This document shows, piece by piece, positions 13,249 through 48,852 of a stretch of DNA of 55,045 nucleotides. The stretch spans positions 1-55,045 of IMG/VR virus record IMGVR_UViG_3300006790_001053. One strand, given 5' to 3'. The notes below the pieces were generated by a model. It made no database searches, was not told the DNA's origin, and was given only the letters and a program-made list of their open reading frames with translations. Source of the DNA: a virus. Taxonomy: Duplodnaviria > Caudoviricetes. The number at the start of each line of letters is the position of its first letter. The first letter of the stretch is position 1. A program made the translations under genes and the position numbers.

Positions 13249-14043
13249 ATGTCCAAAATATTAACATACGAAGAATTTATAAAAAAACACAACAAGGTAA
13301 ACATATTTGTTGGGGAGATACCTAAAATAATATTTAGAACTGGTAAGTGGAAATTAGAAAACATACCAGATGTGGTCATGGATATATATGAGGAATGTAT
13401 GGAAACTAATCCTAATCACGATTTTGTTTATTTTGATGATGATAATTGTGTCACCTTCATCAAAGAATTCTATCCAGAATATATGTCATACTATAATAAA
13501 TTAATACCCACAGCTTATAAAGCTGATTTGTTTAGATATTTGTTACTCTACAAATATGGGGGTTGTTATGGTGATATGACACAAGAAATTTATGTACCAT
13601 ATGACGAATTGTGTGAGGATTTTGAAAGAGTTTTTTGTAGGGATAGTTTAAGTAATACCTTGGGTTTATATAACGCTTTAATGTGTGTAAAACCACTAGA
13701 TTCTGTGGTTTATGAGGCTCTAGAAATATCAAAAAAAAATATAGAAGAAGAAAATTACACAAATTGTACTTTAGGTATAACTGGACCAGTAGCTTTAGGA
13801 CAAGCATTTATGAGAGTTTTTAGAGATTCTACTGTTGGTCGTAATATTAAATTAAAAGAAAATAATGACTCATTAATATTAAATTTTAGGTTAGATAGTC
13901 AAGGTGAGAAAATGATTTTTGATGAAAGGAAAATAAAAGTTGTTGGTAAACCTAAAATTGAAAATCATCTTGATTTGTTGTACGATAAAAATAACATACA
14001 TTACCACTTCTTGTGGAATGATAGAAAAGTATTTAAAAAATGA
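13249..14043 (+). CDS. GT32-like glycosyltransferase (paralogue of 11254..11985)
   Basis: IPKIIFRT, AYKADLFRYLLLYKYGGCYGDMT and TGPVALG motifs. Confidence 0.85.
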   Translation: MSKILTYEEFIKKHNKVNIFVGEIPKIIFRTGKWKLENIPDVVMDIYEECMETNPNHDFVYFDDDNCVTFIKEFYPEYMSYYNKLIPTAYKADLFRYLLLYKYGGCYGDMTQEIYVPYDELCEDFERVFCRDSLSNTLGLYNALMCVKPLDSVVYEALEISKKNIEEENYTNCTLGITGPVALGQAFMRVFRDSTVGRNIKLKENNDSLILNFRLDSQGEKMIFDERKIKVVGKPKIENHLDLLYDKNNIHYHFLWNDRKVFKK

Positions 14044-15218: not shown

Positions 15219-16330
15219 TCTATGTTTGGGTCTAAGTCCGAATCCATTCTAAATTTACTGAAATAGTTATCATATCTTTTTTGTGCTAGCTCTCTAATTT
15301 TTATTTCTCTTTCTTTAACTTCTTCAGAAACAATATCTAATAGTTTATCATATTCTTTCATCACATTTTTTTGACTATATTTACTATAATCTTGGTCTTT
15401 ATTGAATTTATACTCACCTTTGAATACTTTTCTTAAGGCCTTCTTATATTCACTATAATCAGTATCTTCCCATTTAGATTCTTTAGAATAAATCCATGTA
15501 TTGTCTGGGTTTCCTAATAAATCTATTTCTTTAGTGGGTAATAAAATTGAGTTTTCTTTATTTACAAAATCTTTATAACCACTGATTTTAGTATCTAAAG
15601 TGATTATATCTTTCTTTAATACAATAGCATTTAATAATGGGATACAAAAACCTTCCATATGTGATAAACAAATATAACAATCTATACCCCTTTCCAATGA
15701 GTATAAATACTCCTTGGGTAATCTCTTATTTAAAAATATGACTTCTGGTCTTTTTGGGTATTTTTTTAATATTTTTTTAATATCTAATAACCTATCTTTT
15801 GGTATTTCATTTAACTTTATTAATAACCTAACATTATCTTCTTTGGTAAACTCCTCTAAAAAATATTTTAATATACCTTCAATATTTTTCCTAGCTATAC
15901 CAGTAGATTCAGTATAAAACGTATATTTTTTTTCATCAAAAATACTATTGAAAAATCCATTGTCTTTTTTTAATAAGTCTTCATCATAGTAATTAGGTAT
16001 TACCTTTATTGGTTTAGTAACACCACATTCTTCTAGGAGTTTTTTATTAACACTAGAGGGGGTTACTATGTGATGAAATGTGTTGATGTTTGTTGTAATA
16101 CCAGAATTAATAACTGTACCATCCAAAGGTTGTATTAAAACTTTTCTATGAAAAATAAAATCGACAAAGTCGTGTATGTGGTTCATAATTAATATATCAC
16201 CATTAGTGGTGTTTACAACATTATATTTTTTTTTAAAATTTTCTTTTAGGTCCTCATTTATTTTTAATAAACTTTCACCTCTTCTGGACCATATCATTAA
16301 ATCTTGTTTTTTTTCTTTTTTCACAGACAT
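15215..16330 (-). CDS. GT4-like (GT-B) glycosyltransferase
   Basis: IVTPS, VIPN, RKNIEG and SHMEGFCIPLLNA motifs. Confidence 0.8.
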   Translation of the reverse strand: MSVKKEKKQDLMIWSRRGESLLKINEDLKENFKKKYNVVNTTNGDILIMNHIHDFVDFIFHRKVLIQPLDGTVINSGITTNINTFHHIVTPSSVNKKLLEECGVTKPIKVIPNYYDEDLLKKDNGFFNSIFDEKKYTFYTESTGIARKNIEGILKYFLEEFTKEDNVRLLIKLNEIPKDRLLDIKKILKKYPKRPEVIFLNKRLPKEYLYSLERGIDCYICLSHMEGFCIPLLNAIVLKKDIITLDTKISGYKDFVNKENSILLPTKEIDLLGNPDNTWIYSKESKWEDTDYSEYKKALRKVFKGEYKFNKDQDYSKYSQKNVMKEYDKLLDIVSEEVKEREIKIRELAQKRYDNYFSKFRMDSDLDPNID

Positions 16331-19400: not shown

Positions 19401-19770
19401 AATCACCAGCTTCTCTAGCTGCTTTTTCAGTGGATACATCAGTGTCAATCTTTGACTCTAATGATGCGTCTCCAGCTACTCTGTCTGATGTTGCCGCATT
19501 ATACACAGAAGTTGTGTAAGCATACTGTGCGTCATCACCAGCAACTCTAGCAGATGCCTCAGACGACATGTCTGAATCAATCTTAGCTTCTAATGAATTA
19601 TCACCAGCAACTCTAAAAGATGCTTCAGCAAGGTCTGCTGCGTTTAAGTTTGCTAAATCGTCTACTAATCCAGGTAAATCTCCTTTTACGATACCACTTG
19701 GTTCAACGATTTGAGCGTTGTTTAAAATTAAATCTGACTGTCTATTTAATACTATTTTAGTATTTGCCAT
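16441..19770 (-). CDS. Long acidic Ala-rich coiled-coil fibre protein with small C-terminal beta domain
   Basis: Dozens of 11/22-aa repeats (KIDSDMSSEASARVAGDASLEA), three neck-like interruptions (DSFAEIV, DQFKEIV, DSFSEV) and C-terminal VFLNGQLLVEGVDWT. Confidence 0.8.
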   Translation of the reverse strand: MANTKIVLNRQSDLILNNAQIVEPSGIVKGDLPGLVDDLANLNAADLAEASFRVAGDNSLEAKIDSDMSSEASARVAGDDAQYAYTTSVYNAATSDRVAGDASLESKIDTDVSTEKAAREAGDLSLTTKVNADVSNEKSEREAADTAEATARAAADNQLQSNIDTFESRHDSEMSSEISNRIAGDASLDAKVSTLQVAHDEEMSTEVAARQAADATLQSNIDTLDAKVDSEVSAEASARIAGDAAEASSRLAADTTLQNNIDTLEAEHIADVSTLQANIDSESSRAQVAEVANADAIAAETSNRIEDVNAEEARAIAAEGSLNTKIGVEEAARIAADGTLQSNIDVEKGRIDAILSASTADADSFAEIVTLINSVDTENDQAFAAYVLSNDAAVSSEVSSRIAGDSSLEASLSTEVARAEAAESSLDTALAGEASSRLAADQAHDAAISQEIVDRTAGDQALQTSLDNEISDRVANDLNQAANLSAEVSRAEAAELSLDTALNNEVSDRIADVNAEETRAIAAEGSLDTKLADEIADRVADVNAEEARALAAEASLAQVVADEVSSRIADVDAEEARAIAAEGSLENKINSDVSSEASTRLAADISLETKMDADMSSEASARVAGDNSLEAKLDSDMSSEASARVAGDASLATKVDTDVSSEKSAREAADSLLEAKINADVSTEKAAREAADASLEADLSNETDFRLFNDASLETKIDADVSSEASARVAGDASLATKIDTDMSNEVVAREAGDASLEAKIDSDMSSEASARVAADTSLATKIDADVSSEASLRVAGDEALTAKINSDVSSEASSRVAADATLQSNIDVEKGRIDAILSGASIDLDQFKEIVSFVEEVDLENDNALLAAVNSINTAIADEVAAREAADTAVRTDMSDAILSAKTDVELQVSDEITARQSAVTSLEVKHDAELADVNSKLVTEESARIATDATLQASIDTLTSDLADEVTAREEGDTSLESKITDIISNTDFTAMDSFSEVTNHLTRLEDNHLQKAYVMSPALNQNGDMIGFQMNYQQKQNTIQVFLNGQLLVEGVDWTIATSTISLDVKPAAGEPVGAIKLNYNGRTTDTYTIYGVRYQSEISYNGYGY
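17453..19587. repeat. 66-bp-period coding repeats including a perfect 44-bp direct repeat (17453-17496 = 19544-19587)
   Basis: ACTCTAGCAGATGCCTCAGACGACATGTCTGAATCAATCTTAGC is present at both positions. Confidence 0.85.
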
Positions 19771-26301: not shown

Positions 26302-28236
26302 TTATCTAACAAGATAAATAGCTATATCACTGTTAATATCTTTAATTTTTATCCATCTTGAAGGTATCTGTTGGTTTTTCAAGACTCTTATCTGACCTAA
26401 TAAACCAACAACATTCCATTCTTTCCTTTCTTTTCTAGTTTGATAGGGGATTGAAGGGTCAAACTCTGTATTTAAAACCCTTCTCTTACCCTGTTTAGTA
26501 ACGAATACTTCTTCTCCGTTTGGTCCTACATAAACATCAACATCGTATTCGTAATCTTCATATACATAATTACCCCAAACATCTTTTATATATTTTCCAA
26601 CCCATTCATCTGAGGTACCATCCTCACAATTTCCAACAATTGTGGGTTTTGATGAAATAACACCGATAGCGTTATTTGGGTCGATACATTCTTTTACTTT
26701 ACCATTATCTAATTCAACTACTGTCCCAAAAGGGATAGAAGAACCATCTACTGATTCAAAATATTCAGCGTAGTCGGCCCCAGAATTGTAAGTAGCTCCA
26801 GCACCATATATCTCACCGGCTGAATCTACTCTAAAAGCGTTAGCTCTAGCTGCTGCGGAAGTACCTCTACCTACAACTAGGTATTGGTTTGTATTACCAG
26901 TTGTATTATATCTACCCATCACGGTTTGATAATCTTCATAAGCTATGGTTCCTAGACCACTTGCGTGTGAAGCTATACCAACAGTAGTACTTATACCCGC
27001 TCTAGTACCACTCCCTTCTGAATGTGAATAATTACCATAAGTTACGGTAGAAAGACCTTCTGCGTGAGAACCTAAACCATTAGTTTCGGTACCGTCTCCT
27101 TCTGTGTGAGAATAATTTGAATTGGTTAGGGTATCCACACCTTCAGCGTGAGAAGCTTGACCAGCTGATACAGTACCATCTCCTTCTGCGTGAGAAGATT
27201 CACCACTAGCTAAAGTAGTTATACCCTCTGAATGTGAGTAGTTAGTAGTAGCACTTGTAGCTATACCTTCCGCGTGACAATAACTAGCTGTAGCAAAAGT
27301 TAATGTACCTTCACTATGTGCTCCTTGTCCACTAGCCGTAGTGGTAGTACCTTCAGCGTGTGAACTAACACCACTAGCTAAAGTACCACTTCCCTCTGAG
27401 TGTGCGTAATCACCAGATGCTACAGTTAAAAGACCTTCACTGTGTGATGCTTCACCAGCCGCAATAGAACCATTACCTTCTGCGTGTGAAGTCCCACCAC
27501 TAGCCACAGTACTATCACCCTCTGCGTGAGAATATGCATTAAAGGCAACTGTATTAATACCCTCAGCGTGTGCTCCTTCAGCACTAGCCACAGTATTAAT
27601 ACCCTCAGAATGTGAATAACGACCACTCGCGGTTGTGTTACCACCTTCAGAGTGTGATACAATACCACTAGCTGTTGTACTAAGACCTTCAGCGTGAGAA
27701 GCTTGACCAGCTGATACAGTTCCAGAACCTTCAGCGTGAGAAGATTCACCACTAGCTAAAGTAGTTATACCCTCTGCGTGAGATTGTGTTCCATAAGCTT
27801 TAGTATTTCTACCGTGAGCTAAGGAAGAGGCTCCACCAGCAATTGTTGTTCTACCCATAGAAGTAGAAGTCACACCAGAAGCTACAGTATTAATCCCCAT
27901 AGACGTAGAAGCGTAACCACTTGCTAAATTACTATCACCCCAAGCTACCGCATATTGACCAGTAGCATCAACAGTTGTGATATTACTAGATATTATATTT
28001 TCTAAATTAGTTGAACCAGAAGTCCAAAAGATACCTGGTGTGACAGCTGGTACTGATGCCCAACCCACATTACCATCTTTATCTGTAGCCGTTAAAACGT
28101 GTCCTATAGTAACATTATTGTTATATGCTAAATTACCTGTAATGATGGTGTCACCAGAAAGTGTCATAGTGTCACCACTCATTTGTTTCATATCCCTATC
28201 TTGAAATCTAGGTCTTGTATTAAAAATTGCTGCCAT
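26302..28236 (-). CDS. Tail spike/appendage with YadA-head-like SHAEG repeats and C-terminal peptidase G2-type intramolecular chaperone
   Basis: More than 20 14-aa repeats (xSHAEGxxTxASG); ADYAEYFES...GVISSKPTIVGN...EWNVVGLLGQIRV. Start moved to ATG 28236 (MAAIFN). Confidence 0.82.
   Translation of the reverse strand: MAAIFNTRPRFQDRDMKQMSGDTMTLSGDTIITGNLAYNNNVTIGHVLTATDKDGNVGWASVPAVTPGIFWTSGSTNLENIISSNITTVDATGQYAVAWGDSNLASGYASTSMGINTVASGVTSTSMGRTTIAGGASSLAHGRNTKAYGTQSHAEGITTLASGESSHAEGSGTVSAGQASHAEGLSTTASGIVSHSEGGNTTASGRYSHSEGINTVASAEGAHAEGINTVAFNAYSHAEGDSTVASGGTSHAEGNGSIAAGEASHSEGLLTVASGDYAHSEGSGTLASGVSSHAEGTTTTASGQGAHSEGTLTFATASYCHAEGIATSATTNYSHSEGITTLASGESSHAEGDGTVSAGQASHAEGVDTLTNSNYSHTEGDGTETNGLGSHAEGLSTVTYGNYSHSEGSGTRAGISTTVGIASHASGLGTIAYEDYQTVMGRYNTTGNTNQYLVVGRGTSAAARANAFRVDSAGEIYGAGATYNSGADYAEYFESVDGSSIPFGTVVELDNGKVKECIDPNNAIGVISSKPTIVGNCEDGTSDEWVGKYIKDVWGNYVYEDYEYDVDVYVGPNGEEVFVTKQGKRRVLNTEFDPSIPYQTRKERKEWNVVGLLGQIRVLKNQQIPSRWIKIKDINSDIAIYLVR
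27139..27776. repeat. 92-bp near-identical direct repeat (27139-27230 and 27685-27776) within the 42-bp-period SHAEG array
   Basis: Copies are 546 bp (13 x 42) apart with 5 clustered mismatches by manual comparison. Confidence 0.8.
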
Positions 28237-28238
28237 AA

Positions 28239-29387
28239 TTAAATTACATTCCAATGATGACCCAAAGGCCTAAATTGTAATGACTTGTTTAAGTTTTCTG
28301 CTTCTAATGCTTTTCTTTCCAACATTTTGTCTGGTCTTAGTCTTTCCAATCTATCTTTTAATCTCTCCCAAAGTTTTTCTTTATCTTCTTTAGATTCATT
28401 TAAAAGTGAGTCATAATCCATAGTAACATCTGCATCTGTTACACCTAAAGAACCACCAAACTTACCTCTAACCCTACCTAGGGTTTCTTTACACATAGCT
28501 GTGAAATAATCTCTAACCCATTGTTTAGAAGGTGTATTTAACTCGTCAAAGTCTACCACATTGACTGGTACATCTGAGGGTAGTTTTACAATATCTTTAT
28601 TATCATTAAGACATCTTTTTCTATCTTCATCATCTTTTGTTTCATAGTAATGATACCAAACCTTACTACCAGTAACATCGATACCATTCCTACCTCCGTT
28701 TATACTACCGAATATTATTCTAGAACCTGGAGGTGGTATTAAATGTAGTAATTTAGTTCCATTTGGTCCCGCGGTTATTTTATAAATTAAATCACCAGAT
28801 ATAATTCTTTGTTTTAAACTGTAATCAGCATCTCTACTAAGTATATCATAAGAAGAACCTAAAAAGAAACCACCATAACCTAATCCACCAGCTCCACCAG
28901 CAAAAGGTAATTGACCAAATCCTCCACCGAATCCAGCATCACCAAACCCATAAGAGGCGTAAAGTGCGTGGTCTATCGTTGGTGGGGTTATCCATAGTAC
29001 TTCGTTAATCTCACGACCAGCAGGTATTTCATAAACTTGTTGTCCCGCTTTTACAGTTACATAATCTTTTTTAAGTTCCCAAGGACCTCTAGCTTGTAAA
29101 CCAACGATTTTAGAATAAGCGTAAGTAAAAGAATCTTCATAAGCCATTTCTTTCACTGTTAAAGCTTTAGTCAAATCTGTTGTGGTTAAATCTTTTCCAT
29201 ATAAAGAAGTCCATTGTGACTCTATTAACCACTCATTGATGTAAGAAGAATGGTCTTCGATGGAAATCTCTAGTAAAGTCTCCAACATTTCATCCTCTAA
29301 CTCAACTTTTCTTATTGGTGCTCCTAATCGATGTTTTACTTGTCTAAATAATTTTTCTCTCTCAGAATCAGATATAATTAAACTCAT
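28239..29387 (-). CDS. Neck protein, T4 gp13-like
   Basis: KHRLGAPIRKVELEDEML and WVRDYFTAMCKETLGRVRGKF match gp13-family hallmarks. Confidence 0.8.
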   Translation of the reverse strand: MSLIISDSEREKLFRQVKHRLGAPIRKVELEDEMLETLLEISIEDHSSYINEWLIESQWTSLYGKDLTTTDLTKALTVKEMAYEDSFTYAYSKIVGLQARGPWELKKDYVTVKAGQQVYEIPAGREINEVLWITPPTIDHALYASYGFGDAGFGGGFGQLPFAGGAGGLGYGGFFLGSSYDILSRDADYSLKQRIISGDLIYKITAGPNGTKLLHLIPPPGSRIIFGSINGGRNGIDVTGSKVWYHYYETKDDEDRKRCLNDNKDIVKLPSDVPVNVVDFDELNTPSKQWVRDYFTAMCKETLGRVRGKFGGSLGVTDADVTMDYDSLLNESKEDKEKLWERLKDRLERLRPDKMLERKALEAENLNKSLQFRPLGHHWNVI

Positions 29388-34920: not shown

Positions 34921-36240
34921 ATGGGTAAAATTAAAGTTTTAGTTCTACCATCAGATAGAACAGGTGTCTCTAAGTTTCGTTCAGTAGAGCCACACATGAA
35001 ATTACAACAATTATATGGTGATGAGTTCCATGTAGATATAATAACTGCTGGTACCATCGAATTTGATTGGGAGGATGATTCTGTTTATAAAAATTATGAC
35101 ATAGTTCATTTTCATAGAGCAATCCCCAAAAGAGTCAGTAATCAAGTAAGACAAACTTATTTAGAAGAATCATTTAGAATATTAGATAAATTAAAATCTT
35201 TAGGAATCGTCACAGTAATGGATTTAGATGATTATTGGGCTCCTACTAAAGAACACCCAGCTTATCAACTAATGGTTAGAGAAAATCTACCTCACAAAAT
35301 TAAAGAAAATTTAAAGAGAGCTGATTTTATTACAACAACTACACCTATCTTTGCTGAAGAGATACGTAAATACAATAAAAATGTAATAGTGTTACCTAAC
35401 GCTATTGACCCTTCAGAGAAACAATTCACACCGAAGAAAGAAGAAACAGATAAAGATTTAAGATTCGGATGGTTAGGTGGTTCATCACATTTTCACGATT
35501 TAAAATTAATGAGTAATGGAGTATCCCAATTCTTAAACACCTACAAAGATAGAACACAATTTGTTTTATGTGGTTTTGATACAAGAGGTAATATAACAGA
35601 AATTGATAGGAGTACTGGTCAACAAAGAACAAGACCGATTAAACCACAAGAAAGTGTATGGTCTAGATACGAAGAAATGTTTACTAATAACTTAAAATTA
35701 GTAACACCAGAATATTCAGAAATTTTAACTAAGTATGATAGAGAGAATGAAGAAAAGGCAGCTATTAAAAATGATGTATATCGTAGAGTTTGGACAGAAC
35801 CTATCACATCATTCGCTGCTAACTACAATTTATTCGATGTTTCTATGGCTCCACTTAAGGACCACACCTTCAACTTAGTTAAATCACAATTAAAAGTTAT
35901 TGAAGCTGGTTTCCATAAAAAAGCTTTAATAGCTCAAGATTTTGGACCTTATCAAATAGATTGTGTTAATCTAATAGAGAAAGGTGGAAAGATTAATGAA
36001 AATGGTAACGCAATTCTAGTTGAAAAACACAAAAACCATAAAGATTGGTTTAAAGCGATGAAAAAATTGATTGAAAATCCAGAATTAGTTGATTTATTAC
36101 AAAATAATTTGTATAATACAGTCAAAGAGAGATATCATATAGATACAGTTACCAAAAAGAGAGCTGAATTTTATAAAAGTATTCTCCAAAATAATGAAAA
36201 AGAAGTAGAACAATTAATTGAAGAAACAAATGCAGTTTAA
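34921..36240 (+). CDS. GT-B (GT4-like) glycosyltransferase
   Basis: MDLDDYW, VLPNAID, GWLGGSSHFHDL and APLKDHTFNLVKSQLKVIEAG motifs. Confidence 0.85.
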   Translation: MGKIKVLVLPSDRTGVSKFRSVEPHMKLQQLYGDEFHVDIITAGTIEFDWEDDSVYKNYDIVHFHRAIPKRVSNQVRQTYLEESFRILDKLKSLGIVTVMDLDDYWAPTKEHPAYQLMVRENLPHKIKENLKRADFITTTTPIFAEEIRKYNKNVIVLPNAIDPSEKQFTPKKEETDKDLRFGWLGGSSHFHDLKLMSNGVSQFLNTYKDRTQFVLCGFDTRGNITEIDRSTGQQRTRPIKPQESVWSRYEEMFTNNLKLVTPEYSEILTKYDRENEEKAAIKNDVYRRVWTEPITSFAANYNLFDVSMAPLKDHTFNLVKSQLKVIEAGFHKKALIAQDFGPYQIDCVNLIEKGGKINENGNAILVEKHKNHKDWFKAMKKLIENPELVDLLQNNLYNTVKERYHIDTVTKKRAEFYKSILQNNEKEVEQLIEETNAV

Positions 36241-38012: not shown

Positions 38013-38182
38013 TTTTTTCAGAGAGAGAAAGGGAAAAGTTGGAGTCTCGTTTAAAAAAAACTAAAATAGAATTAACCATGAGGGATAGATTAGATGGTTG
38101 GTACATAAAGTCGTTGGAAGATAAAATAAAAGAAATAGAATCTAAAATAGGATTAAAAAAACATAGTTTTAAAGATGGTTAG
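38009..38182 (+). CDS. Hypothetical 57-aa protein (below the ORF-track cut-off)
   Basis: MIFSEREREKLESRLKKTKIELTMRDRLDGWYIKSLEDKIKEIESKIGLKKHSFKDG; ATGA overlap upstream and 8-nt overlap downstream fill the gap exactly. Confidence 0.65.
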   Translation: MIFSEREREKLESRLKKTKIELTMRDRLDGWYIKSLEDKIKEIESKIGLKKHSFKDG

Positions 38183-39719
38183 TGTTATTTACTCTACTAG
38201 AAAAGATAAACCAGAATTTATTGAACAAATAGAAAAAACATCTGGTGTACATAAGATAGAAATCATTCAAATTATTAATGACGGTGAAATGTCATTGACA
38301 GAGGCTTACAATAAAGGATTAGAAGAGTCTAATAATGATATTGTTGTTTTTTGTCATGATGATATTATTTTTGATACTAAAAATTGGGGCAGAAAATTAA
38401 CCTCTATTTTCAAAAAGAATCCAGAATACGGTATAATAGGTATTGCTGGTACAACTGATTTAGTAGACGGTAGATGGTGGACCTTAAAAGAATCTATGAA
38501 TGGAATAGTATCACACCAACACGAAGGTAAGAAATGGACTAATTATTATTCCAAAGACCAAGGTAATAAAATAACTGATATGGTTGTTTTAGATGGTCTT
38601 TTCTTAGCTGTAAATAAAAATAAAATAAAACATACTTTTGATGAAGATTTTCATGGATTTCATTTCTATGATATTTCTTTTTGTTTCCCAAATTACTTAG
38701 ATGGTGTGAAAGTGGGTTTAACTACACAAATAAGAGTTACTCATCTATCTATTGGAGAAACAAACAAACAGTGGGAAGGTCATAAAGTTAGATTTGAAGA
38801 AAAATATAAAGATAAGTTACCAATTAGATTAACTAATAATAAAACCTTTGAGGAGAAGTTAGAATTTAATCCTAAGAATATTGGTTTTGGTATGGTGACT
38901 TATAATGCTGAACATAGAATTAAACAAAGTGCTTTTACTGTTCCAGATTGGGTAGAAAATTTTGTCATTGTAAACGATGGTACACCATACAACGAAGACT
39001 CTTACCCCAAACACGCAAAGATAATACAACACGAAGTAAATAAATCGGTAGGAGCAGCTAAAACAACAGCTATAAATTATTTAATGAAGAATACGGATTG
39101 TGAACATATTTTCATAATGGAGGATGATATTCTAATTAAAGATGAAAAGGTATTTGAAGAGTATATAAAACACTCTCTCATATCTGGTATTAAACATTTA
39201 AATTTTGGTTTACATGGACCAGCTAACAAAAAAGATGGACAAGGTTTCACTAGTTTAGAAGATAGAAAAGATACTGAAGGTGAACCAAATCCTAGGATGT
39301 TAATACCGTATAAAAATGAAGAAGAAGATGAGGCAGATGTTACTATCGCTTTATACCCTAATTGTGTTGGGGCGTTTTCTTATTACTATAGACCTGTTCT
39401 AGAAGACATTGGTGGATTTGACCCTAATTTTAAAAACGCTTGGGAACACGTAGAACATACTTATCAAGCAATCAAAAAAGGGTATCATCCAGCTTTTTGG
39501 TATTTCGCTGATATTAATAAGAGTTGGGAGTATTTAACGGACATACCCAATTCAATAGAAGAGAGTACAATAGCTAGAACACCAACATGGAACGATAACT
39601 TTAGAAAGGGTACTTTATGGTATAAAAAGAAACATGGAGTTACCCCAACTGAAACACCTTTGGCTACAAAAGAGTTAGTCCAAAAACAATTACACGCAAT
39701 ATATCAAAATAGAGGATAA
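38175..39719 (+). CDS. Two-domain GT2 (GT-A) glycosyltransferase
   Basis: Domain 1: AYNKG, FCHDD, LDGLF, HFYD. Domain 2: VTYN, VNDG, IMEDD, WEHVE. Confidence 0.88.
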   Translation: MVSVIYSTRKDKPEFIEQIEKTSGVHKIEIIQIINDGEMSLTEAYNKGLEESNNDIVVFCHDDIIFDTKNWGRKLTSIFKKNPEYGIIGIAGTTDLVDGRWWTLKESMNGIVSHQHEGKKWTNYYSKDQGNKITDMVVLDGLFLAVNKNKIKHTFDEDFHGFHFYDISFCFPNYLDGVKVGLTTQIRVTHLSIGETNKQWEGHKVRFEEKYKDKLPIRLTNNKTFEEKLEFNPKNIGFGMVTYNAEHRIKQSAFTVPDWVENFVIVNDGTPYNEDSYPKHAKIIQHEVNKSVGAAKTTAINYLMKNTDCEHIFIMEDDILIKDEKVFEEYIKHSLISGIKHLNFGLHGPANKKDGQGFTSLEDRKDTEGEPNPRMLIPYKNEEEDEADVTIALYPNCVGAFSYYYRPVLEDIGGFDPNFKNAWEHVEHTYQAIKKGYHPAFWYFADINKSWEYLTDIPNSIEESTIARTPTWNDNFRKGTLWYKKKHGVTPTETPLATKELVQKQLHAIYQNRG

Positions 39720-40453
39720 TGGAAAAGAATTTTGAAACAACATTTTTAATCTCAACATTTAACAATGTTGAGTACATCGAAGAGTGTTTAGACTCAATAG
39801 AGAACCAAACTTATTTTAAAGACGGAGAAGCTAGATTCCAAGTTTTAATTGGAGTAGATGGTTGTCCCAAAACTTATGAAAAAATATTAGAAATAAAAGA
39901 TAAGTATCGTAATTTAGATGTTTATAATCTAGAGAAAAATATGGGAGCTTATATCGCTCTTAACACTTTAATACCACATATCAAATACGATAATATAATA
40001 GTATTTGGTAGTGATGATGTTATGGTACCAGAAGCCATAGATATTTTATCCAAAGTAGATAATCAATATGATATCGTTAAGTTTCTTTATAAAGTATTTC
40101 AAAACAACATACAGAATGTTGTGGCGAATGCTAGAGCCACAGCGGCTGGAGCTATTATGGTTAGAAAAAGAGTTTTTGATATGTGTGGGGGTTATCACCA
40201 CAATAGATTTTCTTCAGACTTTGAATTATTAACTAGATTACATAAATTTACAAAAACGATTAACCTAAAAGATTATATTTTTTATTATAGAGCACATCAA
40301 AAAAGTTTAACCACAACAGTTAATAAAACAAAAAGAATTCAATTCGATAATATGGTTAGGAGAACTAATTACACCAAAGATAACCTTAAAATCGACCCTA
40401 TTGTTTCTAGAATAAAAGATAGTTTTACAACTTTCAAAGAAAACGTAGTATGA
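39719..40453 (+). CDS. GT2 glycosyltransferase
   Basis: ISTFNNVEYIEECLDSI, GVDG, GSDD, SDFEL and YYRAH motifs. Confidence 0.9.
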   Translation: MEKNFETTFLISTFNNVEYIEECLDSIENQTYFKDGEARFQVLIGVDGCPKTYEKILEIKDKYRNLDVYNLEKNMGAYIALNTLIPHIKYDNIIVFGSDDVMVPEAIDILSKVDNQYDIVKFLYKVFQNNIQNVVANARATAAGAIMVRKRVFDMCGGYHHNRFSSDFELLTRLHKFTKTINLKDYIFYYRAHQKSLTTTVNKTKRIQFDNMVRRTNYTKDNLKIDPIVSRIKDSFTTFKENVV

Positions 40454-41058
40454 TAGAAAAATTAGAACATATACAACCTAATTTAAAAATTAGTGAAAAT
40501 GTAGCTGTTATTGGTTCTAGTTATACTTTATTAAACAATCAATATGGTGAAGAGATTGATAGTTTTGATGATGTTATTAGATTTAATAGAGCTCCAATTA
40601 AGGGTTTTGAAGATCACGTTGGTACTAAAACAACTGTAAGAGCAGCTAATATTCATGTTTTTACTGGTAGACCACCAGATAGTAGATTTAATATAAAAAC
40701 ACAGAACCCAAAGTTCATAAAAAATGAAAAAAATTGTAATATAGTATGTGTTCAAAAGGTGTCAAACGCTAATAAATTTGTTCATGAAAGTTCAAAACCA
40801 TATTTTATGGATTCTATGTCATTTTTAAACAATAAATACAATCTAGGTAAAGACCCAACAGTAGGTTTTAGGATGATATACATATTAATAACTAATAACT
40901 ATAAACCCACGTTATTTGGTTTTGGTGTTAATGAATCCGATAAACCAACACATTATTGGGAAAAACTAAACCACAAATCTACTTACCATAATTTAAATAA
41001 AGAGAGAGATATTATTAAAAAATGGGTAGAAAAAGGTAAAGTTACAATAAAATTATAA
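40450..41058 (+). CDS. GT29 sialyltransferase-family protein
   Basis: Sialylmotif L VAVIGSS...GEEIDSFDDVIRFNRAPIKGFEDHVGTKTT, motif S PTVG...LFGF, motif III HYWE and motif VS HNLNKE. Confidence 0.88.
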   Translation: MIEKLEHIQPNLKISENVAVIGSSYTLLNNQYGEEIDSFDDVIRFNRAPIKGFEDHVGTKTTVRAANIHVFTGRPPDSRFNIKTQNPKFIKNEKNCNIVCVQKVSNANKFVHESSKPYFMDSMSFLNNKYNLGKDPTVGFRMIYILITNNYKPTLFGFGVNESDKPTHYWEKLNHKSTYHNLNKERDIIKKWVEKGKVTIKL

Positions 41059-41061
41059 TAT

Positions 41062-41388
41062 ATGATTATTTATGTAGATATTGATGAGACCATTTGTAGT
41101 AAATCAGAAGATTTGGATTATAGTAAAGCAGAACCTTGGGTTGGTAGGATAGAATATATAAATGGGTTATATGATAAAGGTCACACCGTAATTTATTGGA
41201 CCGCTAGAGGTAGTGGGACAGGAAAGGATTGGTCAGAAGTGACCAAAACACAATTTCAAAAATGGGGAGTAAAATACCATGGCTTAAAATTTAAAAAACC
41301 AGTATACGATATTTTTATAGACGATAAAAATATAAATTCTTTAGATTGGGATAAATTTAAAGAAAAAACTTTATTTAATGATAAATAA
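41062..41388 (+). CDS. Small capless HAD phosphatase (capsule-biosynthesis type)
   Basis: DIDET, WTARG, KKP and IDDK motifs. Confidence 0.85.
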   Translation: MIIYVDIDETICSKSEDLDYSKAEPWVGRIEYINGLYDKGHTVIYWTARGSGTGKDWSEVTKTQFQKWGVKYHGLKFKKPVYDIFIDDKNINSLDWDKFKEKTLFNDK

Positions 41389-42325
41389 TAATTATAGTGA
41401 ATATATGAATTTTAATAAACCAGTATACCCACTATGCCCTTCTTTTGATAAAGAAGATAATTTCTCAATAGAGGTAGAATCTACTAAAAAATATATTAAA
41501 TTTTTAAGTGAAAATGGGGTTAACTCGATAATGACAACTGCTGGTACCTCACAATTTAATTTACTCTCAGTTGAAGAGACGCGTAAATTAAATCAGTGTT
41601 TATCTTATTTTGGTGGGAACAAAATAGTTGGTATCCCACCATTGTCTTTACAACATATTGGGGGGGAAATAAAATATTATAATAATTATTTTTCAGGTTT
41701 AGATAATGTTTTTTATCTAATATTATTTCCAGAAAGGTACTACACCAACGAACAAATTATAAAATATTTTAAACAAATAGATAGACTAAGTAATTTTCCT
41801 ATTCTAGCTCATGGTAACACATTAAAAAAAGGTTATGGTGGTACGTATATATATGAAAATGGTTTATTGAAAGGGTTGTCTAAAATACCTAAATTTATTG
41901 GTATAAAAGAAGAATCACCTACTATCGATTTCTCAATAAAAGAAATGTCTGATTTAAATTTAGAAATTATAGTTGCTGGTGGTAGTATGAGGAGGTTTTG
42001 GTGTTTAGAACCTTTCGGTGCTACTTCTTATTTGAGTGGGGTTGGTAGTTTTTTCCCTTCTCTAGAAGAATCTTTTTATGAACATTATAAAAAAAATGAA
42101 ATAGTTGAGGCTAAAAATATAATGTTGAATATAGAAAAACCTCTTTTTGATGTCTTCATGTCAATAGGTTGGCATGCTAGTATGAGGTTTACGTTACAAA
42201 AAATGGGTTTTATAAAAGACAATAGAGACCCTTTTATTGAAATTGGTGAAGAAGAAGAAAACAAAATTAATCATATAATAGAAAAAATTAAAAATTATGA
42301 AGACGTTTATTATAGGACCGTGTAG
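41378..42325 (+). CDS. DHDPS/N-acetylneuraminate lyase-family class I aldolase
   Basis: AGTSQFNLLSVEE and Schiff-base GIKEES. Confidence 0.8.
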   Translation: MINNNYSEYMNFNKPVYPLCPSFDKEDNFSIEVESTKKYIKFLSENGVNSIMTTAGTSQFNLLSVEETRKLNQCLSYFGGNKIVGIPPLSLQHIGGEIKYYNNYFSGLDNVFYLILFPERYYTNEQIIKYFKQIDRLSNFPILAHGNTLKKGYGGTYIYENGLLKGLSKIPKFIGIKEESPTIDFSIKEMSDLNLEIIVAGGSMRRFWCLEPFGATSYLSGVGSFFPSLEESFYEHYKKNEIVEAKNIMLNIEKPLFDVFMSIGWHASMRFTLQKMGFIKDNRDPFIEIGEEEENKINHIIEKIKNYEDVYYRTV

Positions 42326-43034
42326 TTTAGAAACATATGAATTATCTTATGAAGTATTAAAAAAAGTTCATCCATATATGGGTGAAAAAGATTTTTATTT
42401 TAAAGGTTCTTTTGACAAAGCAAACAGAAGTTCAATTACTGGTAAAAGAGGTCCAGGATTAGAAGAAGGATTAAACATTTTTAAACAATTAAAAAAAGAT
42501 TTTCCTGGGTTACAAACAACTACTGATGTACACGAAGTTCATCAAGTAGAGAAACTTAGTGAAGTTATTGATTTAATCCAAATACCCGCCTTTTTATGTA
42601 GACAAACAGATTTATTGGTGGAATCGGCTAAACATTTTAACAAGGTAAATATTAAGAAGGGACAGTGGATGTCACCACAAAACATGGTAAAAGGTGTAGA
42701 TAAACTAAAGACCACTAATTCCAATTGTGATGTTTGGGTGTGTGAAAGAGGTACAGCATTGGGTTATTCACAATTAATAGTAGATTTCGCATCTGTTGAT
42801 ATATTAAAAGAACATTTTGATAAGGTTATATTAGATTGTACACATTCCGCTCAATTAACAAAACCAAACGGTAGAATAGGTGGAAACCCAAAGTTAGCAG
42901 AGAGATACTTTAAAGCAGCAGAGATATTTGGGTATGATGGCGTATTTGTGGAAGCTCATCCAACACCTTCATTATCTTATTCAGACGCGGATTCAGTATT
43001 ACCATTAGATGTTATGGAAAATTTATTAAAATAA
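42297..43034 (+). CDS. kdsA: KDO 8-phosphate synthase (metal-dependent type)
   Basis: GPC, FDKANRSS, QIPAFLCRQTDLL, NIKKGQ, ERG, DCTH, EAHP and SD motifs. Confidence 0.95.
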   Translation: MKTFIIGPCSLETYELSYEVLKKVHPYMGEKDFYFKGSFDKANRSSITGKRGPGLEEGLNIFKQLKKDFPGLQTTTDVHEVHQVEKLSEVIDLIQIPAFLCRQTDLLVESAKHFNKVNIKKGQWMSPQNMVKGVDKLKTTNSNCDVWVCERGTALGYSQLIVDFASVDILKEHFDKVILDCTHSAQLTKPNGRIGGNPKLAERYFKAAEIFGYDGVFVEAHPTPSLSYSDADSVLPLDVMENLLK

Positions 43035-43690
43035 TGAAAATTTCTGTTTTAGGTGATAGTCACTGTAGAGTTTTTAGTAATACAAATGTATTTACACCTT
43101 TCTTTTTAGGACCTGGTAGTAAATTCAACCTAATACAAAACTCAAAAGGGATAAAAACAAAATTAAAAGGGTTATTAAAAGAGATAGGTAAAAAATATGA
43201 TTACAACATGTTAATATTTGGGGAACCTTCTTGTAGGTACCAAGTCAACAACGACCACTACATTTATAGTAAAAACTTTGAACGGTATGATGTCGTCAAC
43301 GAAGAACATCTAAAAACAATGGTAGATAGGTATGAAGATATCATTACCACTTTTAAAGATTATAATTTAATAGTTTGTGCACCAATATCTGTTTACACAC
43401 AATCTATTAAATTTTCTAATATATTCTCATCTAAAATTAAAAAAATTTGTGAAAAAAATAATATTCACTTTGTAGATATTAAAAAAGAAATTATAAACGA
43501 TGGTGGTTTTGTTGACGAAGATTATAAATCCGACCCAATACACGCATCACAAAAAGTATTAAAATTTATAGAAAAAAGTTTAAACGAAATAGATATTAAT
43601 ATAAAAATAGAAATAATTAAAACTGAAAGTTTTAAAGAAATAAAAAATAAATATAAATTTAATCAAAAATTCAATTGTTATGTATATTAA
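43034..43690 (+). CDS. SGNH/GDSL hydrolase-like protein
   Basis: LGDSH, FGEPSCR and DPIH motifs. Confidence 0.65.
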   Translation: MKISVLGDSHCRVFSNTNVFTPFFLGPGSKFNLIQNSKGIKTKLKGLLKEIGKKYDYNMLIFGEPSCRYQVNNDHYIYSKNFERYDVVNEEHLKTMVDRYEDIITTFKDYNLIVCAPISVYTQSIKFSNIFSSKIKKICEKNNIHFVDIKKEIINDGGFVDEDYKSDPIHASQKVLKFIEKSLNEIDINIKIEIIKTESFKEIKNKYKFNQKFNCYVY

Positions 43691-44315
43691 AAAGTTTTGG
43701 GAATCTGTATCTGAGGATTGGAGGCATTTCTCCAGTGGGCCTAAAAAAATGAAGGATAATAAAAAGAAATATATTATTAATAATGTTAACAACCATATAT
43801 TCTCAAAAATTAATAAAGATGAGATAGAAACCACGTTAGATTGGGGTTGTGGTGGTGGAATATTATCCAAAGAGATAAGTAAATTCTCTAAAGTAGGTAT
43901 TGTAGATCTAACTAAAACTAGTTTAGAGAATGCTAAAAAGTATTTAGGTGAAAAAAATTATCTTTTAGATATAGAGTTACCAAACGATATATCTGAATAT
44001 AGTTACGATGGACCTAAAGTTGACTTAGTTTTTTGTCACGCAGTTATCCAACATTTCCCCACAATAAATTATTTTGAAAAAGTTTTATCAGTGTGGGAAG
44101 ATATAAATCCTAAATATATTGCCATACAAATTAAATTAGATAATGAAACTAAAGAATGTAAAAATTACGAGAAAGAGTTTTTAAATGGTTTATTTTTTAG
44201 TGAGGATGATATCATAAAATATTTTAATGATATTAATTATAAAAATATAAGTATTGGATATAGTAAAACTTTAAATAATAAAATTAAGTTAGGTTACTAC
44301 GTTTTTAAAAAATAA
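43680..44315 (+). CDS. Class I SAM-dependent methyltransferase
   Basis: LDWGCGGG, IVDL and DLVFCHAVIQHFP motifs. Confidence 0.88.
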   Translation: MYIKKFWESVSEDWRHFSSGPKKMKDNKKKYIINNVNNHIFSKINKDEIETTLDWGCGGGILSKEISKFSKVGIVDLTKTSLENAKKYLGEKNYLLDIELPNDISEYSYDGPKVDLVFCHAVIQHFPTINYFEKVLSVWEDINPKYIAIQIKLDNETKECKNYEKEFLNGLFFSEDDIIKYFNDINYKNISIGYSKTLNNKIKLGYYVFKK

Positions 44316-44319
44316 AAAT

Positions 44320-45000
44320 ATGAAAAAATTATGTATTATACCAGCTAGGGGTGGTAGTAAAAGATTACCAAAAAAAAACATTAAATCTTTAAATGGTAAA
44401 CCACTAGTATTTTACACATTAGATTCAGTAATTAATTCAAAAGTTTTTGATAAAATTATTTTTACATCTGATGATAATGAAATATTAGATGTGGTTAGAT
44501 TAAATTATAGTATTAAAAATTTGAGTGTAGTTGAAAGACCAACCAATTTAGCTTCAGATACATCTAAGGTAATTGATACTGTTCTTCATTTTTTAGATGA
44601 TGATTACGAACAAACATGGTTAACGTTACCCACATCACCTTTAAAAATAGAAAAAGATTTTATTGATGCAGATAAGTTATTAACCAAGGAAGATGATTCG
44701 GTATTATCTTATACTGAAATGGAGTTTCCACCATCACTTGGGTTAGTTGTAAAAAACAATAATATCCTAGAGGATTATGACGAAACACAACCTTGGCAGA
44801 ACGGTAATTCTCGTTCACAAGACCACCCAACAATTTATAGACCTAATGGAGCTCTTTATGGTAGTTGGACACACAAACTAAAACATAATAAAAACTATTA
44901 CGTGGGTAGAACAAAAGGTTACTTTATGCCAAGAAATAGGTCAATAGACATCGACACCCAATTCGAATTTGATTTAGCAGAATTTATGTTAAAAAAATAA
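44320..45000 (+). CDS. neuA: Acylneuraminate cytidylyltransferase (NeuA/PseF-type CMP-ulosonate synthetase)
   Basis: IIPARGGSKRLPKKN, LPTSP, RSQD, NGALY and SIDIDT motifs. Confidence 0.88.
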   Translation: MKKLCIIPARGGSKRLPKKNIKSLNGKPLVFYTLDSVINSKVFDKIIFTSDDNEILDVVRLNYSIKNLSVVERPTNLASDTSKVIDTVLHFLDDDYEQTWLTLPTSPLKIEKDFIDADKLLTKEDDSVLSYTEMEFPPSLGLVVKNNNILEDYDETQPWQNGNSRSQDHPTIYRPNGALYGSWTHKLKHNKNYYVGRTKGYFMPRNRSIDIDTQFEFDLAEFMLKK

Positions 45001-46565: not shown

Positions 46566-46922
46566 ATGGATAGATTATTTAATATAGCTGGTGAAGAATA
46601 TTATTTGGATTTAGATAGAATATCTAATTTCTCAAAAATGGAACCTACTATAGATGAAATATTGGAAAGAAGAGAGATAGAAACTGTGTCTGGTGACACC
46701 AGAACGGAGTATGTCCAACATTTTCCCGATAATAATGGTGGTCAAATGATTGATGTTGTTAAATGGGAAACAGTTAGAGCTTTACTAGAATCTTTATTAC
46801 AAGAAAATGGTGTTATAGACGAATCTATGGGTTTTAGAAAATTGGAAGGTCAATTATCTATACCTTTTAGAATCGCCTTTAATACATTACTAAAAAATAA
46901 ATTAATAAGAAAAAATGGATAA
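46566..46922 (+). CDS. Hypothetical protein
   Basis: ATG 46566 (MDRLFN); C-terminal LSIPFRIAFNTLL. Confidence 0.75.
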   Translation: MDRLFNIAGEEYYLDLDRISNFSKMEPTIDEILERREIETVSGDTRTEYVQHFPDNNGGQMIDVVKWETVRALLESLLQENGVIDESMGFRKLEGQLSIPFRIAFNTLLKNKLIRKNG

Positions 46923-48036
46923 TTTAAACACACAAGAAATTGTAGAAACATTAAAAACAAATCTAAAAAGACTTGAGGAGAAAGACTTCTCAATTTACTT
47001 TTTTGTGATTGACACAAACGGTGCTCCAACTGGAGCTGTTGCTAACATTTACGAACATGTAAAATTATTAACAGAGTTAGGTTATAACGCTCATATTTTA
47101 CACGAGAAAAATGAATACGCAACTAAACAAGTTGATTATATCAAATCTTGGTTAGGTGAAGAATATTCATCTTTATCACATGTATCGATAGAAGACAAGA
47201 CTGTTAAAATAAACATGACTGATATTATTATGGTACCAGAGTTATTCGCAAATGTAATGGAACAAACGGTAAACCTTCCTGGTAAAAGAGTTGTTTTCTG
47301 TCAGTCTTATGATTATATCACAGAAACATTACAACCAGGTAAAACTTGGTTAGACTACGGAATTACTGATTGTATTACAACTACTGAAAAACAAAAAGAG
47401 TATATCGATAACCTTTTCAATGAAAGAGTTAATACTAGAGTAGTACCAGTAGCCGTAGATAGTAGATTCACTAAAAATACTGAACCTAAGAAACCTATTG
47501 TGGCTATAATGACTAGAGACCAAAGAGACACTGTAAAGATATTCAAGAATTTCTACATCAAGTACCCACATTTAAAATGGATTACTTTCAGAGATATGCG
47601 TGGAATGAGTAAAGATGTTTTTGCGGAAGCATTAAAAGAGTCTTGTGTGGCTGTATGGGTAGACGATATCGCTGGATTTGGAACTTTCCCTATCGAGTCT
47701 ATGGCTTGTGGAACACCTGTAATCGGTAAACTACCAAACTTAGCAAATGGTTGGGTAACAGAAAAGAATGGTATTTGGGTAGATAATACGGTAATTATAC
47801 CAGATTTACTATCACAATATCTTCAGTCTTGGTTAGAAGACTCAGTACCATCAGATATCTTCTCAGAAATGGATGAAACGGTGGGTAATTTCACCACAAA
47901 TATCATGAGAGATTCTGTTGAGTCTGTATATACTGAATTATTCGAAAATAGAGAAAAAGAAATAAAAGAAACTTTAGCCAAATATGAGGTTGATAATGTA
48001 ACCACTGTTGGTGGTGGAGAAACAAAAAACAAATAA
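46915..48036 (+). CDS. GT-B (GT4-like) glycosyltransferase
   Basis: MVPE, FCQ and AGFGTFPIESMACGTPVIG motifs. Confidence 0.82.
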   Translation: MDNLNTQEIVETLKTNLKRLEEKDFSIYFFVIDTNGAPTGAVANIYEHVKLLTELGYNAHILHEKNEYATKQVDYIKSWLGEEYSSLSHVSIEDKTVKINMTDIIMVPELFANVMEQTVNLPGKRVVFCQSYDYITETLQPGKTWLDYGITDCITTTEKQKEYIDNLFNERVNTRVVPVAVDSRFTKNTEPKKPIVAIMTRDQRDTVKIFKNFYIKYPHLKWITFRDMRGMSKDVFAEALKESCVAVWVDDIAGFGTFPIESMACGTPVIGKLPNLANGWVTEKNGIWVDNTVIIPDLLSQYLQSWLEDSVPSDIFSEMDETVGNFTTNIMRDSVESVYTELFENREKEIKETLAKYEVDNVTTVGGGETKNK

Positions 48037-48039: not shown

Positions 48040-48852
48040 ATGGAAACTAATTTAACGGTAATATTACCAATACTAACACTAGATGAAAAAGAAAAAGATT
48101 TATTCGCTAACGCTGTAAAAAGTATTGAGGACCAAAAAGTAAGTGTAGATAGACTATTGATAGTTGTTCCTAAAAATAGTGAAGCTAAGAAAACTTTAGA
48201 TTCTTATGACTTTACAGAAGAGATTAAGAATATAACAACAGTTGTTGAAAACGATGGTGAGACTGATTTCTGTAGCCAAGTTAATCTAGGAGTAGAAAAT
48301 TGTGAAACAGAATGGTTTTCTATTTTAGAATTAGATGATATATACTCAGCTATATGGTTCGATAATTTTGTAGAATATAGAGAACATTATAAAGAAGTTG
48401 ATTTGTTCCTACCAATCGTATTAGATGTTAATGATGAAAACAAATTCTTACACTTTAGTAACGAACCAGTTTGGGCTAGAGACTTTAGTGAAAAAATGGG
48501 ATATGTCGACTATGATTCATTATTAAACTTCCCTAACTTCCAATTATGTGGTTCAGTTGTTAGAACAGAATCATTTAAATCTGTTGGGGGTCTAAAATCG
48601 ACTGTTAAGATGTTTTTCAATTATGAATTTTTATTAAGAATGTCTTACTATGATATGAGTATGATGACCATACCAAAAATAGGTTATAAAAAATATAACA
48701 TGAGAGAGAATTCTTTATTTTGGAAATATAAAAACGATAAAGAATATTTCATGGACCCATTAGAGTCTAAATTTTGGTACAACACCTCAAAGAAAGAATG
48801 TTATTTTAAAAATGATAGAGGAATAAAATATGAGGAAGAAAATGTACAATAG
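48040..48852 (+). CDS. GT2-like (GT-A) glycosyltransferase
   Basis: VILPI, VNLGV, ILELDD, VGGLK and YEFLLR motifs. Confidence 0.75.
   Translation: METNLTVILPILTLDEKEKDLFANAVKSIEDQKVSVDRLLIVVPKNSEAKKTLDSYDFTEEIKNITTVVENDGETDFCSQVNLGVENCETEWFSILELDDIYSAIWFDNFVEYREHYKEVDLFLPIVLDVNDENKFLHFSNEPVWARDFSEKMGYVDYDSLLNFPNFQLCGSVVRTESFKSVGGLKSTVKMFFNYEFLLRMSYYDMSMMTIPKIGYKKYNMRENSLFWKYKNDKEYFMDPLESKFWYNTSKKECYFKNDRGIKYEEENVQ

Follow-up and report, generated by a model that had tools for sequence, protein, structure and literature searches.

A short, soluble GT29-family protein of a marine phage and its genetic link to CMP-ulosonate cassettes

Animal sialyltransferases are membrane-anchored, glycosylated and disulfide-bonded, and the GT-A-variant fold of the bacterial family GT42 resembles that of their own family, GT29. 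Here we describe an open reading frame (ORF) of a marine phage for a soluble protein of 202 residues, which almost certainly belongs to GT29 as well; it lies in a window of 55,045 nucleotides (positions 1-55,045 of the IMG/VR virus record IMGVR_UViG_3300006790_001053, one strand). Prokaryotic members of the family have been reported by Petit et al. 2018 (PMC5811610; this and all papers below are cited from parts of their texts), who described 23 bacterial GT29 sequences with the sialylmotifs L, S, III and VS and without a transmembrane domain or the cysteines of motifs L and S. These proteins, mostly from marine organisms and biochemically uncharacterised, were placed basal to the eukaryotic enzymes, and the words 'virus', 'phage' and 'viral' do not occur in the available parts of that paper. 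In plants, the GT29 protein RCKT1/MGP2 has been assigned as a transferase for Kdo (3-deoxy-D-manno-octulosonate) activated with cytidine monophosphate (CMP); it is proposed to use CMP-beta-Kdo for rhamnogalacturonan II, and inverting transfer from CMP-Kdo is expected (PMC11288761). Our literature search found no paper describing GT29 in a bacteriophage, and a review table lists the family in two coccolithoviruses (PMC5371807). Phages with auxiliary genes for Kdo or lipopolysaccharide are on record: S-SCSM2R carries KdsA and KdsB (PMC12801897), a marine EVG carries NeuA and KdsA (PMC5332604), and the product of a phage GT-B enzyme of family GT94 was assigned as Kdo on cytosine, with 5-hydroxymethylcytosine (5hmC) as the base that can receive it (bioRxiv 10.1101/2023.12.21.572611). 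The parts of these three texts at hand do not mention GT29.

The protein of the window resembles the bacterial GT29 proteins of PMC5811610 in its four motifs and in the lack of a transmembrane domain and of motif L/S cysteines, but differs from the Rhizobiaceae GT29 that we compared, which lacks the HY of motif III and is fused to a methyltransferase. With the animal Golgi sialyltransferases (ST3Gal-I, 2wml/2wnb; ST6Gal-I, 4js1/4mps/6qvs; ST8Sia-III, 5bo6) it shares the Pfam family, the four motifs in register and the histidines of both motif III and motif VS, whereas their type II anchor, their stem, about 97 N-terminal residues and their motif cysteines are missing; its setting would be cytoplasmic and its donor is probably not N-acetylneuraminic acid (Neu5Ac). 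As for RCKT1/MGP2, the pairing is with a Kdo pathway and not with sialic acid, although the plant enzyme is a Golgi protein. It also recalls the GT42 enzymes (CstII type), soluble or peripheral CMP-sialic acid transferases of bacteria with a fold similar to GT29 (PMC11288761) and weak sialylmotifs (PMC5811610), but the phage protein has no GT42 match in Pfam at E<=1. The phage itself is like S-SCSM2R, the marine EVG and the GT94 phages in having phage-borne KdsA and cytidylyltransferase genes and in a probable phage use of Kdo; KdsA was found in 10 phage records. Unlike the window, S-SCSM2R gave no GT29 match, and only one of 50,697 phage records did. On balance we think it probable that the ORF encodes a functional, cytoplasmic, anchor-free GT29 enzyme of a 200-residue form common in tailed phages, an inverting CMP-ulosonate transferase whose sugar would here probably be Kdo or a modified Kdo. 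The features of the gene that carry this reading are given below.

40450..41058, plus strand: GT29-family glycosyltransferase, 202 aa, soluble (PF00777)
40495..40638, plus strand: sialylmotif L, residues 16-63, ENVAVIGSS...RFNRAP...VGTKTTV, aligned to CAVVGNS...LRMNKAP...VGSKTT of 2wml
40855..40923, plus strand: sialylmotif S, PTVGFRMIYILITNNYKPTLFGF, residues 136-158, without Cys, aligned to PSTGILSVIFSLHICDEVDLYGF of 2wml
40951..40962, plus strand: motif III, HYWE, residues 168-171, aligned to HYWE of 2wml
40987..41004, plus strand: motif VS, HNLNKE, residues 180-185, aligned to HDGDFE of 2wml and containing the putative catalytic His

The ORF is maximal, from an ATG at 40450 to a TAA at 41058, and its start codon overlaps the TGA stop of an upstream GT2 gene in an ATGA (40450-40453), within a run of co-directional, tightly packed genes at about 34.9-49.6 kb. 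In Pfam, the 202-residue protein matches PF00777 (Glyco_transf_29) with E 1.7e-26 and a score of 93.7 bits, far above the curated cut-off (23), and no other family, GT42 included, at E<=1; a six-frame search gave 87.3 bits over model positions 28-271 of 272. PHROGs holds no family for it and NCBIfam gave no meaningful match. Eight of nine PDB sequence matches at E<=10 are GT29 sialyltransferases (ST3Gal-I, ST6Gal-I, ST8Sia-III, ST6GalNAc-II), and no other fold family appears among the PDB matches at E<1. With HMMER, a profile of 15 relatives aligns its positions 14-199 with residues 98-292 of pig ST3Gal-I (2wml; E 3.6e-19) and places every one of the motifs L, S, III and VS in register (CAVVGNS/vAivgss, PSTG..YGFG/PtvG..yGfg, HYWE/HYwe, HDGDFE/HnlnkE). 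By the chain numbering used there, H168 pairs with the histidine of motif III and H180 with that of motif VS; we take these two ST3Gal-I residues to be the phosphate-binding His302 and the catalytic His319. Profile-profile comparison with hhalign related the phage profile over its full length to an animal ST6Gal1-like protein (probability 99.3%, 174 columns) and to the Rhizobiaceae GT29 (98.5%, 163 columns); a plant ST-like protein aligned over motif L only (71 columns).

An earlier note on this DNA, made from the sequence alone, had described a GT29 protein with all four sialylmotifs in correct order within 202 residues, including the VS histidine of HNLNKE, and with neither anchor, stem nor motif cysteines. 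A direct scan finds the motifs in the order L, S, III, VS at the residues listed above (the motif L core VAVIGSS at 18-24, RFN at 44-46), and the PF00777 score bears out the family. Val occupies the disulfide column of motif L and Asn/Tyr that of motif S, and the only cysteines of the protein, C96 and C100, lie outside these columns. The absence of a membrane anchor follows from a maximal Kyte-Doolittle 19-residue mean of 0.82, compared with about 1.6 for a membrane helix, and that of a stem from a motif L that begins about 15 residues from the N-terminus. A split gene that has lost its N-terminus was rejected, as homologues begin at the same place.

The family is large and conserved. A word-indexed search returned 16 relatives, all 140-211 aa long and all with PF00777, and when a profile was run exhaustively against 1.84 billion representatives, it matched 6,951 proteins at E<=1e-3, 1,658 at E<=1e-10 and 147 at E<=1e-30. 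About 200 residues is the norm for this form of GT29: 128 of 148 new proteins, from the best 150 listed, measure 180-239 aa. Among 129 family representatives at 50% identity, N46, G58 and G139 are invariant, and each of S24, G33, I36, D37, R44, F45, E54, N67, G157, H168, Y169, H180 and E185 is shared by at least 90%; a Cys in the motif L column occurs in one of the 105 that match the motif pattern. The gene is under purifying selection. When contigs of four sequencing runs were aligned on 40300-41200, the differences listed within the ORF comprised 23 synonymous and 4 non-synonymous changes (27 in all, with 18 more differences on the stretch beyond those listed), compared with the 19% synonymous that single changes at random should give; the four replacements listed (D55N, K94Q, V111I, T148A) lie outside the motif residues, and no insertion or deletion was seen in the ORF among the differences listed. 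The 6.8-kb cluster around the gene was found, the possible source aside, in 19 further sequencing runs of 12 studies, labelled mostly marine or aquatic, and no RNA dataset is listed among the runs that hold it.

Viruses dominate the distribution. The nearest Atlas clusters are 75-90% viral, mainly Uroviricota, with an automatic GT29 name already attached; IMG/VR holds 43 related loci, and the one match among the 50,697 INPHARED records is LR756508.1, an uncultured phage of 484 kb in which PF00777 matches at seven places, corresponding to about five genes, in the vicinity of NeuB, HAD and GDP-mannose dehydratase genes. In cellular DNA, where the counts come from samples and narrow patterns, a profile match was obtained in one of 301 genomes of a Verrucomicrobiota sample, the genome on which the sample was centred, and PF00777 in 4 of 401 Bacteroidota genomes, two above cut-off and one of these again the sample's centre. 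Pattern scans of GTDB, derived from a 36-sequence alignment with the single pattern ..RFNRAP.., found the 200-aa GT29 in at least 3 contigs of metagenome-assembled genomes (MAGs), a floor and not a census given the narrow pattern, and 72,556 plasmid records gave no match. Phage contigs thus seem to carry the family far more often than the sampled cellular genomes do. A recent capture from a eukaryote was rejected in view of a clade of phage and MAG proteins with 99% support and the phage-like composition of the gene.

Some relatives show features of their own. In LR756508.1 (L047, 314297-338785), a record without annotation, tandem GT29 genes at 7728-8360 and 10459-12549 of the excerpt stand beside NeuB, GDP-mannose 4,6-dehydratase and HAD genes, and a GIY-YIG endonuclease gene lies within the array. 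The 200-aa copies in MAG contigs (L046/L050, Opitutales, 168,711 bases; L045; L049), two of which are shorter than 6 kb, are candidates for prophage or mis-binned phage DNA; on the Opitutales contig the neighbours of GT29 are MORN-repeat, methyltransferase-fragment and GT8 genes. A distant viral group of about 365 aa carries an extra N-terminal region of about 160 residues and sits in GC-rich contigs with no cytidylyltransferase nearby:

L024:10549-11637, GT29 of about 365 aa
L026:412-1515, the same form
L030:4800-5909, the same form
L036:7389-8501, the same form
L042:9467-10567, the same form
L043:2620-3714, the same form
L044:9503-10591, the same form

What ties the 200-residue form to a sugar is its genetic neighbourhood. 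Among 17 close viral loci (L002-L018, 34-44% identity, some of them near-duplicates and about ten distinct lineages in all), 16 carry CTP_transf_3 on the strand of GT29 and no more than 8 kb away from it, and these 16 also hold either KdsA (6 loci, each with a DHDPS-like gene) or NeuB (10 loci); the record of the exception, L013, ends 4.8 kb past the GT29 gene. At the distant loci L020-L044 (25 records), a cassette match was found in one only, under cut-off. The two synthases exclude each other: of 19 whole records, 6 contain KdsA, 12 contain NeuB and none both, with neither in one 24%-complete fragment. A metagenomic protein of 695 aa, P0181, even joins GT29 (from residue 17), CTP_transf_3 (207-374) and NeuB (442-675) in one chain; other fusions combine GT29 with methyltransferase, GT8, GT1 or FdtA-like domains. 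Neither WaaA (PF04413) nor KpsC/S (PF05159) occurs in any of five KdsA-type records, one of them 95% complete, which leaves GT29 as the only family there known to use CMP-ulosonates. GT29 is thus well supported as genetically tied to CMP-ulosonate cassettes, of the eight-carbon (KdsA) and nine-carbon (NeuB) type alike, and we regard it as likely that its donor is a CMP-ulosonate. The conserved neighbourhood, the exclusive cassettes and the natural fusion thereby also back the earlier proposal that the enzyme would use the CMP-sugar made by its neighbours. In its interpretation of function, the earlier note would accordingly be largely right, but the label 'eukaryote-type' and the rarity that it implied are not supported: the 23 bacterial sequences of PMC5811610 have the same traits, and 147 clusters, mostly of Uroviricota, match at E<=1e-30. 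As the same traits are reported there for bacteria, what first seemed striking belongs to a prokaryotic form that had been described before. Added here are its close linkage to interchangeable KdsA and NeuB cassettes, the natural fusion and the phage-rich distribution, and we consider them moderately interesting.

In the window, the following genes surround the GT29 gene.

38175-39719 and 39719-40453, plus strand: two GT2-type genes, of 514 aa (two GT2-like halves) and 244 aa (PF13712, PF00535)
41062..41388, plus strand: small HAD-type phosphatase, 108 aa (phrog_1238, 107 bits)
41378..42325, plus strand: divergent DHDPS/NanA-family protein, class I aldolase-like (PF00701, 43.5 bits)
42297..43034, plus strand: Kdo-8-phosphate synthase KdsA (PF00793, 153 bits; NCBIfam NF003543, 265.7 bits against a cut-off of 242)
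43034..43690, plus strand: 218-aa protein, weakly GDSL/SGNH-like (PF13472, 16.3 bits, under cut-off)
43680..44315, plus strand: S-adenosylmethionine-dependent methyltransferase (Methyltransf_25, _11 and _12 above cut-off; UbiG-like, 43 bits, under cut-off)
44320..45000, plus strand: NeuA/PseF-type cytidylyltransferase, a CMP-ulosonate synthetase (PF02348, 78.6 bits)

With these genes, the pathway could run as follows. KdsA, which lies above the NCBI equivalog cut-off, would join host arabinose-5-phosphate and phosphoenolpyruvate to Kdo-8-phosphate, the small HAD phosphatase would take off the phosphate and the NeuA-type cytidylyltransferase would activate the sugar. CMP-Kdo or a methylated or otherwise modified form is the most probable donor in this phage. 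GT29 would then transfer the sugar to a glycan made by the neighbouring soluble glycosyltransferases, with H180 of motif VS as general base and H168, N46 and G139 holding the CMP-phosphate. The HAD protein is a candidate ulosonate-phosphate phosphatase; it scores 20.7 bits with the NCBIfam BT0820 family, far under cut-off, and matches a 'capsule biosynthesis protein' in the PDB (9iqw, E 4e-13). The DHDPS-like protein retains the Schiff-base Lys (IGIKEE) and has His at the Tyr column of the alignment with Thermotoga maritima DHDPS; its gene is syntenic with KdsA in 6 related loci, and its structural neighbour is a 417-member cluster that is 90% viral. For the 218-aa protein no PDB relative was found at E<0.29, and the methyltransferase is possibly a sugar O-methylase. 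Together with the DHDPS-like enzyme, these two proteins point to a modified Kdo as a possible end product. Related ulosonate cassettes contain sulfotransferase genes (L003:13815-14522, L018:13991-14851, L009:16761-17633) and several O-methyltransferases, which hints at sulfated or methylated acidic glycans.

The glycan machinery extends well beyond this cluster. Eleven glycosyltransferase domains are spread over the 55 kb (three GT32-type, three GT1/4-type, four GT2-type and GT29), all without membrane segments and flanking large repeat-bearing, tail-like proteins:

10514-11257, 11254-11985 and 13249-14043: GT32-type
14040-15218: DUF2827 gene among the glycosyltransferase genes, presumably a putative transferase
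15215-16330, 34921-36240 (weak) and 46915-48036: GT1/4-type
38175-39719 (two halves), 39719-40453 and 48040-48852: GT2-type

Membrane-like segments are absent from all ORFs between 34.9 and 49.6 kb, and the cluster thus holds no flippase, polymerase or polyprenyl-phosphate transferase. We lean towards a glycan on virion proteins, or a precursor of the host envelope at the inner face of the membrane, as the acceptor, and consider DNA less likely.

As to the identity of the sugar, we lean, with modest confidence, towards a donor specifically of the Kdo type, and several observations count against this choice. The cytidylyltransferase resembles synthetases for sialic or other nonulosonic acids and not KdsB: its best PDB match is the CMP-Neu5Ac synthetase of Neisseria meningitidis (1eyr, E 1.6e-27, full length), compared with E>=1.8e-5 over the N-terminus only for KdsB chains, and the PseF model gives 130 bits, under its own cut-off, as opposed to at most 44 bits for KdsB models. 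No KdsD/SIS isomerase was found in any of the five KdsA-type records, so that arabinose-5-phosphate would have to come from the host, and the conserved DHDPS-like neighbour lies outside the textbook Kdo route, so that something other than plain Kdo may be made. The window amounts to about 17% of the genome, and further transferases or synthases may lie outside it. The GT29 sequence itself does not say 'Kdo' either, given two related phages, L009 and L018, that share about 83% nucleotide identity over the upstream genes and GT29 and about 85% over the cytidylyltransferase block. The segment that follows GT29 is swapped between them (L009:10631-14224, L018:10631-12292), and the intervening genes differ: a NeuB-SAF-TIM-barrel fusion, DHDPS and an APH-type kinase in L009, the DHDPS-like gene and KdsA in L018. 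In a tree of 42 rows, for which the forms of about 365 aa were trimmed to their last 205 residues and near-duplicates left out (L003, L004, L010, L011, L014, L025, L027, L028, L034, L037, L038, L041, L048, L050, L051), the window protein falls into a 17-row clade (SH-aLRT 99%) with 7 KdsA, 6 NeuB and 4 unassigned contexts; the label KdsA or NeuB needs 4 changes on this tree, a number equalled by 32-38 of 500 shuffles, and the phylogeny is thus not sorted by synthase context. Such relations suggest that cytidylyltransferase and GT29 either accept both eight- and nine-carbon acids or shift their specificity with few changes, and a relaxed donor specificity would be predicted from related phages that exchange the synthase and keep the two other genes. 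The enzyme could therefore be a true nonulosonic-acid transferase (for sialic, Kdn, pseudaminic or legionaminic acid) or a donor-promiscuous CMP-ulosonate transferase, in which case KdsA would not define the donor and a nine-carbon acid would come from the host or from outside the window. We judge this rather unlikely, even though the cytidylyltransferase is NeuA/PseF-like, either synthase occurs in near-identical backgrounds of GT29 and cytidylyltransferase, the same GT29 clade is paired with NeuB in 10 of the 17 close loci and in the huge phage LR756508.1, and the tree rows nearest to the window protein have NeuB contexts. NeuB has no match in the window, which is weak evidence from about 17% of a genome; KdsA and NeuB co-occur in none of the 19 records, each phage thus appearing to make one sugar for its GT29, and the KdsA of the window passes the NCBI equivalog cut-off. 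A broader proposal, which we put forward tentatively and would not expect to hold in full, is that the 200-residue GT29 is chiefly a phage family and the main prokaryote-side reservoir of GT29, which caps phage glycans, probably on virion proteins, in a donor-tolerant manner with Kdo, Kdn and other nonulosonic acids, while the synthase cassette is swapped (KdsA for NeuB) and cytidylyltransferase and GT29 are kept.

Two further explanations concern the acceptor and the activity of the protein. As Kdo can be attached to 5hmC by a phage GT-B enzyme, glycosylation of DNA is a rival to be reckoned with; here an ulosonic acid would be joined by GT29 to a modified base in a hypermodified phage genome. 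All transferases of the window are soluble, and the cluster is interleaved with genes for PolB, an exonuclease, PhoH, an NT5C-like protein and an ORF at the position of a dUTPase; besides, the GT94 product reported in bioRxiv 10.1101/2023.12.21.572611 offers a precedent for Kdo on cytosine, although GT29 has zero occurrences in the parts of that text at hand. The five KdsA-type records, however, including the one that is 95% complete, contain no hydroxymethylase of the thymidylate-synthase family and no Tet_JBP match (the control for the latter likewise matched nowhere), and eleven glycosyltransferase domains in 55 kb are more in keeping with an oligo- or polysaccharide than with modified bases; we consider this explanation very unlikely. 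Even less credible, in our view, is the reading that the protein is a GT29 remnant that has decayed or lacks catalysis, such as one that would bind sugar nucleotides, or an enzyme for a donor other than a CMP-sugar. The missing counterpart of the first 97 or so residues of the crystallised ST3Gal-I construct and the Ser in the motif L column that is Asn in ST3Gal-I (GSS for GNS) would fit decay. Yet the purifying selection, with 23 synonymous and 4 non-synonymous changes among the differences listed, the histidines of motifs III and VS, which at least 90% of the 129 representatives retain, the typical length of about 200 aa (180-239 aa in 128 of 148 representatives, from the best 150 listed) and the fusion and synteny of GT29 with CMP-synthetases all speak for a working enzyme. 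The explanation that we prefer is a functional CMP-ulosonate transferase, whose sugar in this phage is probably Kdo or a modified form of it.

The carrier of the gene is a phage, judging from the virus record, the PHROG matches (DNA polymerase 220 bits, helicase 359, PhoH 225, 3'-5' exonuclease 127, pre-neck appendage protein 97), a Peptidase_G2 match of 112 bits, a weak Phage_base_V match and its PolB, which matches only 17 of the 50,697 phage records, those of Salinibacter, Nostoc, Anabaena and Dolichospermum phages, at 24-29% identity. CheckV estimates the completeness of the record at 17%. Capsid, portal and terminase genes were not found in the 55,045 bases, the sole match of the terminase search being the P-loop of PhoH, and megablast of 36-46 kb against phage records gave zero matches. 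There is no sign of a foreign island, as the GC content of the cluster (0.28) falls inside the range of the window (0.26-0.39). Scans for promoter-like sites (81, with 88 expected) and terminator-like sites (8, with 5.3 expected) were uninformative. Two large proteins are encoded on the minus strand:

16441-19770, minus strand: 1109-aa protein in which a tandem repeat of 66 nt (22 aa) occurs about 10.8 times (17302-18315)
26302-28254, minus strand: 650-aa protein that has the pre-neck-appendage PHROG match and, at its C-terminus, an intramolecular-chaperone domain (Peptidase_G2)

The former is likely a fibre-like structural protein, whose 66-nt repeat probably accounts for a 619-aa antisense ORF at 17087-18946, and the latter looks like a tail spike or fibre.

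A natural, cytoplasmic GT29 of 200 residues that does not depend on cysteines may be easier to express in bacteria than its animal relatives, and would be a minimal model for catalysis in this family. Its tie to KdsA as well as NeuB cassettes echoes the Kdo-transferring GT29 of plants, and its phage-rich distribution is relevant to the bacterial origin that has been proposed for the sialyltransferases of eukaryotes. If a donor-tolerant phage family were indeed the main prokaryotic reservoir, it would define a minimal, disulfide-free core of GT29, and phages could have moved the family between bacteria and early eukaryotes. For the phages themselves, the cluster points to marine viruses that build elaborate acidic glycans with a wholly soluble set of enzymes.

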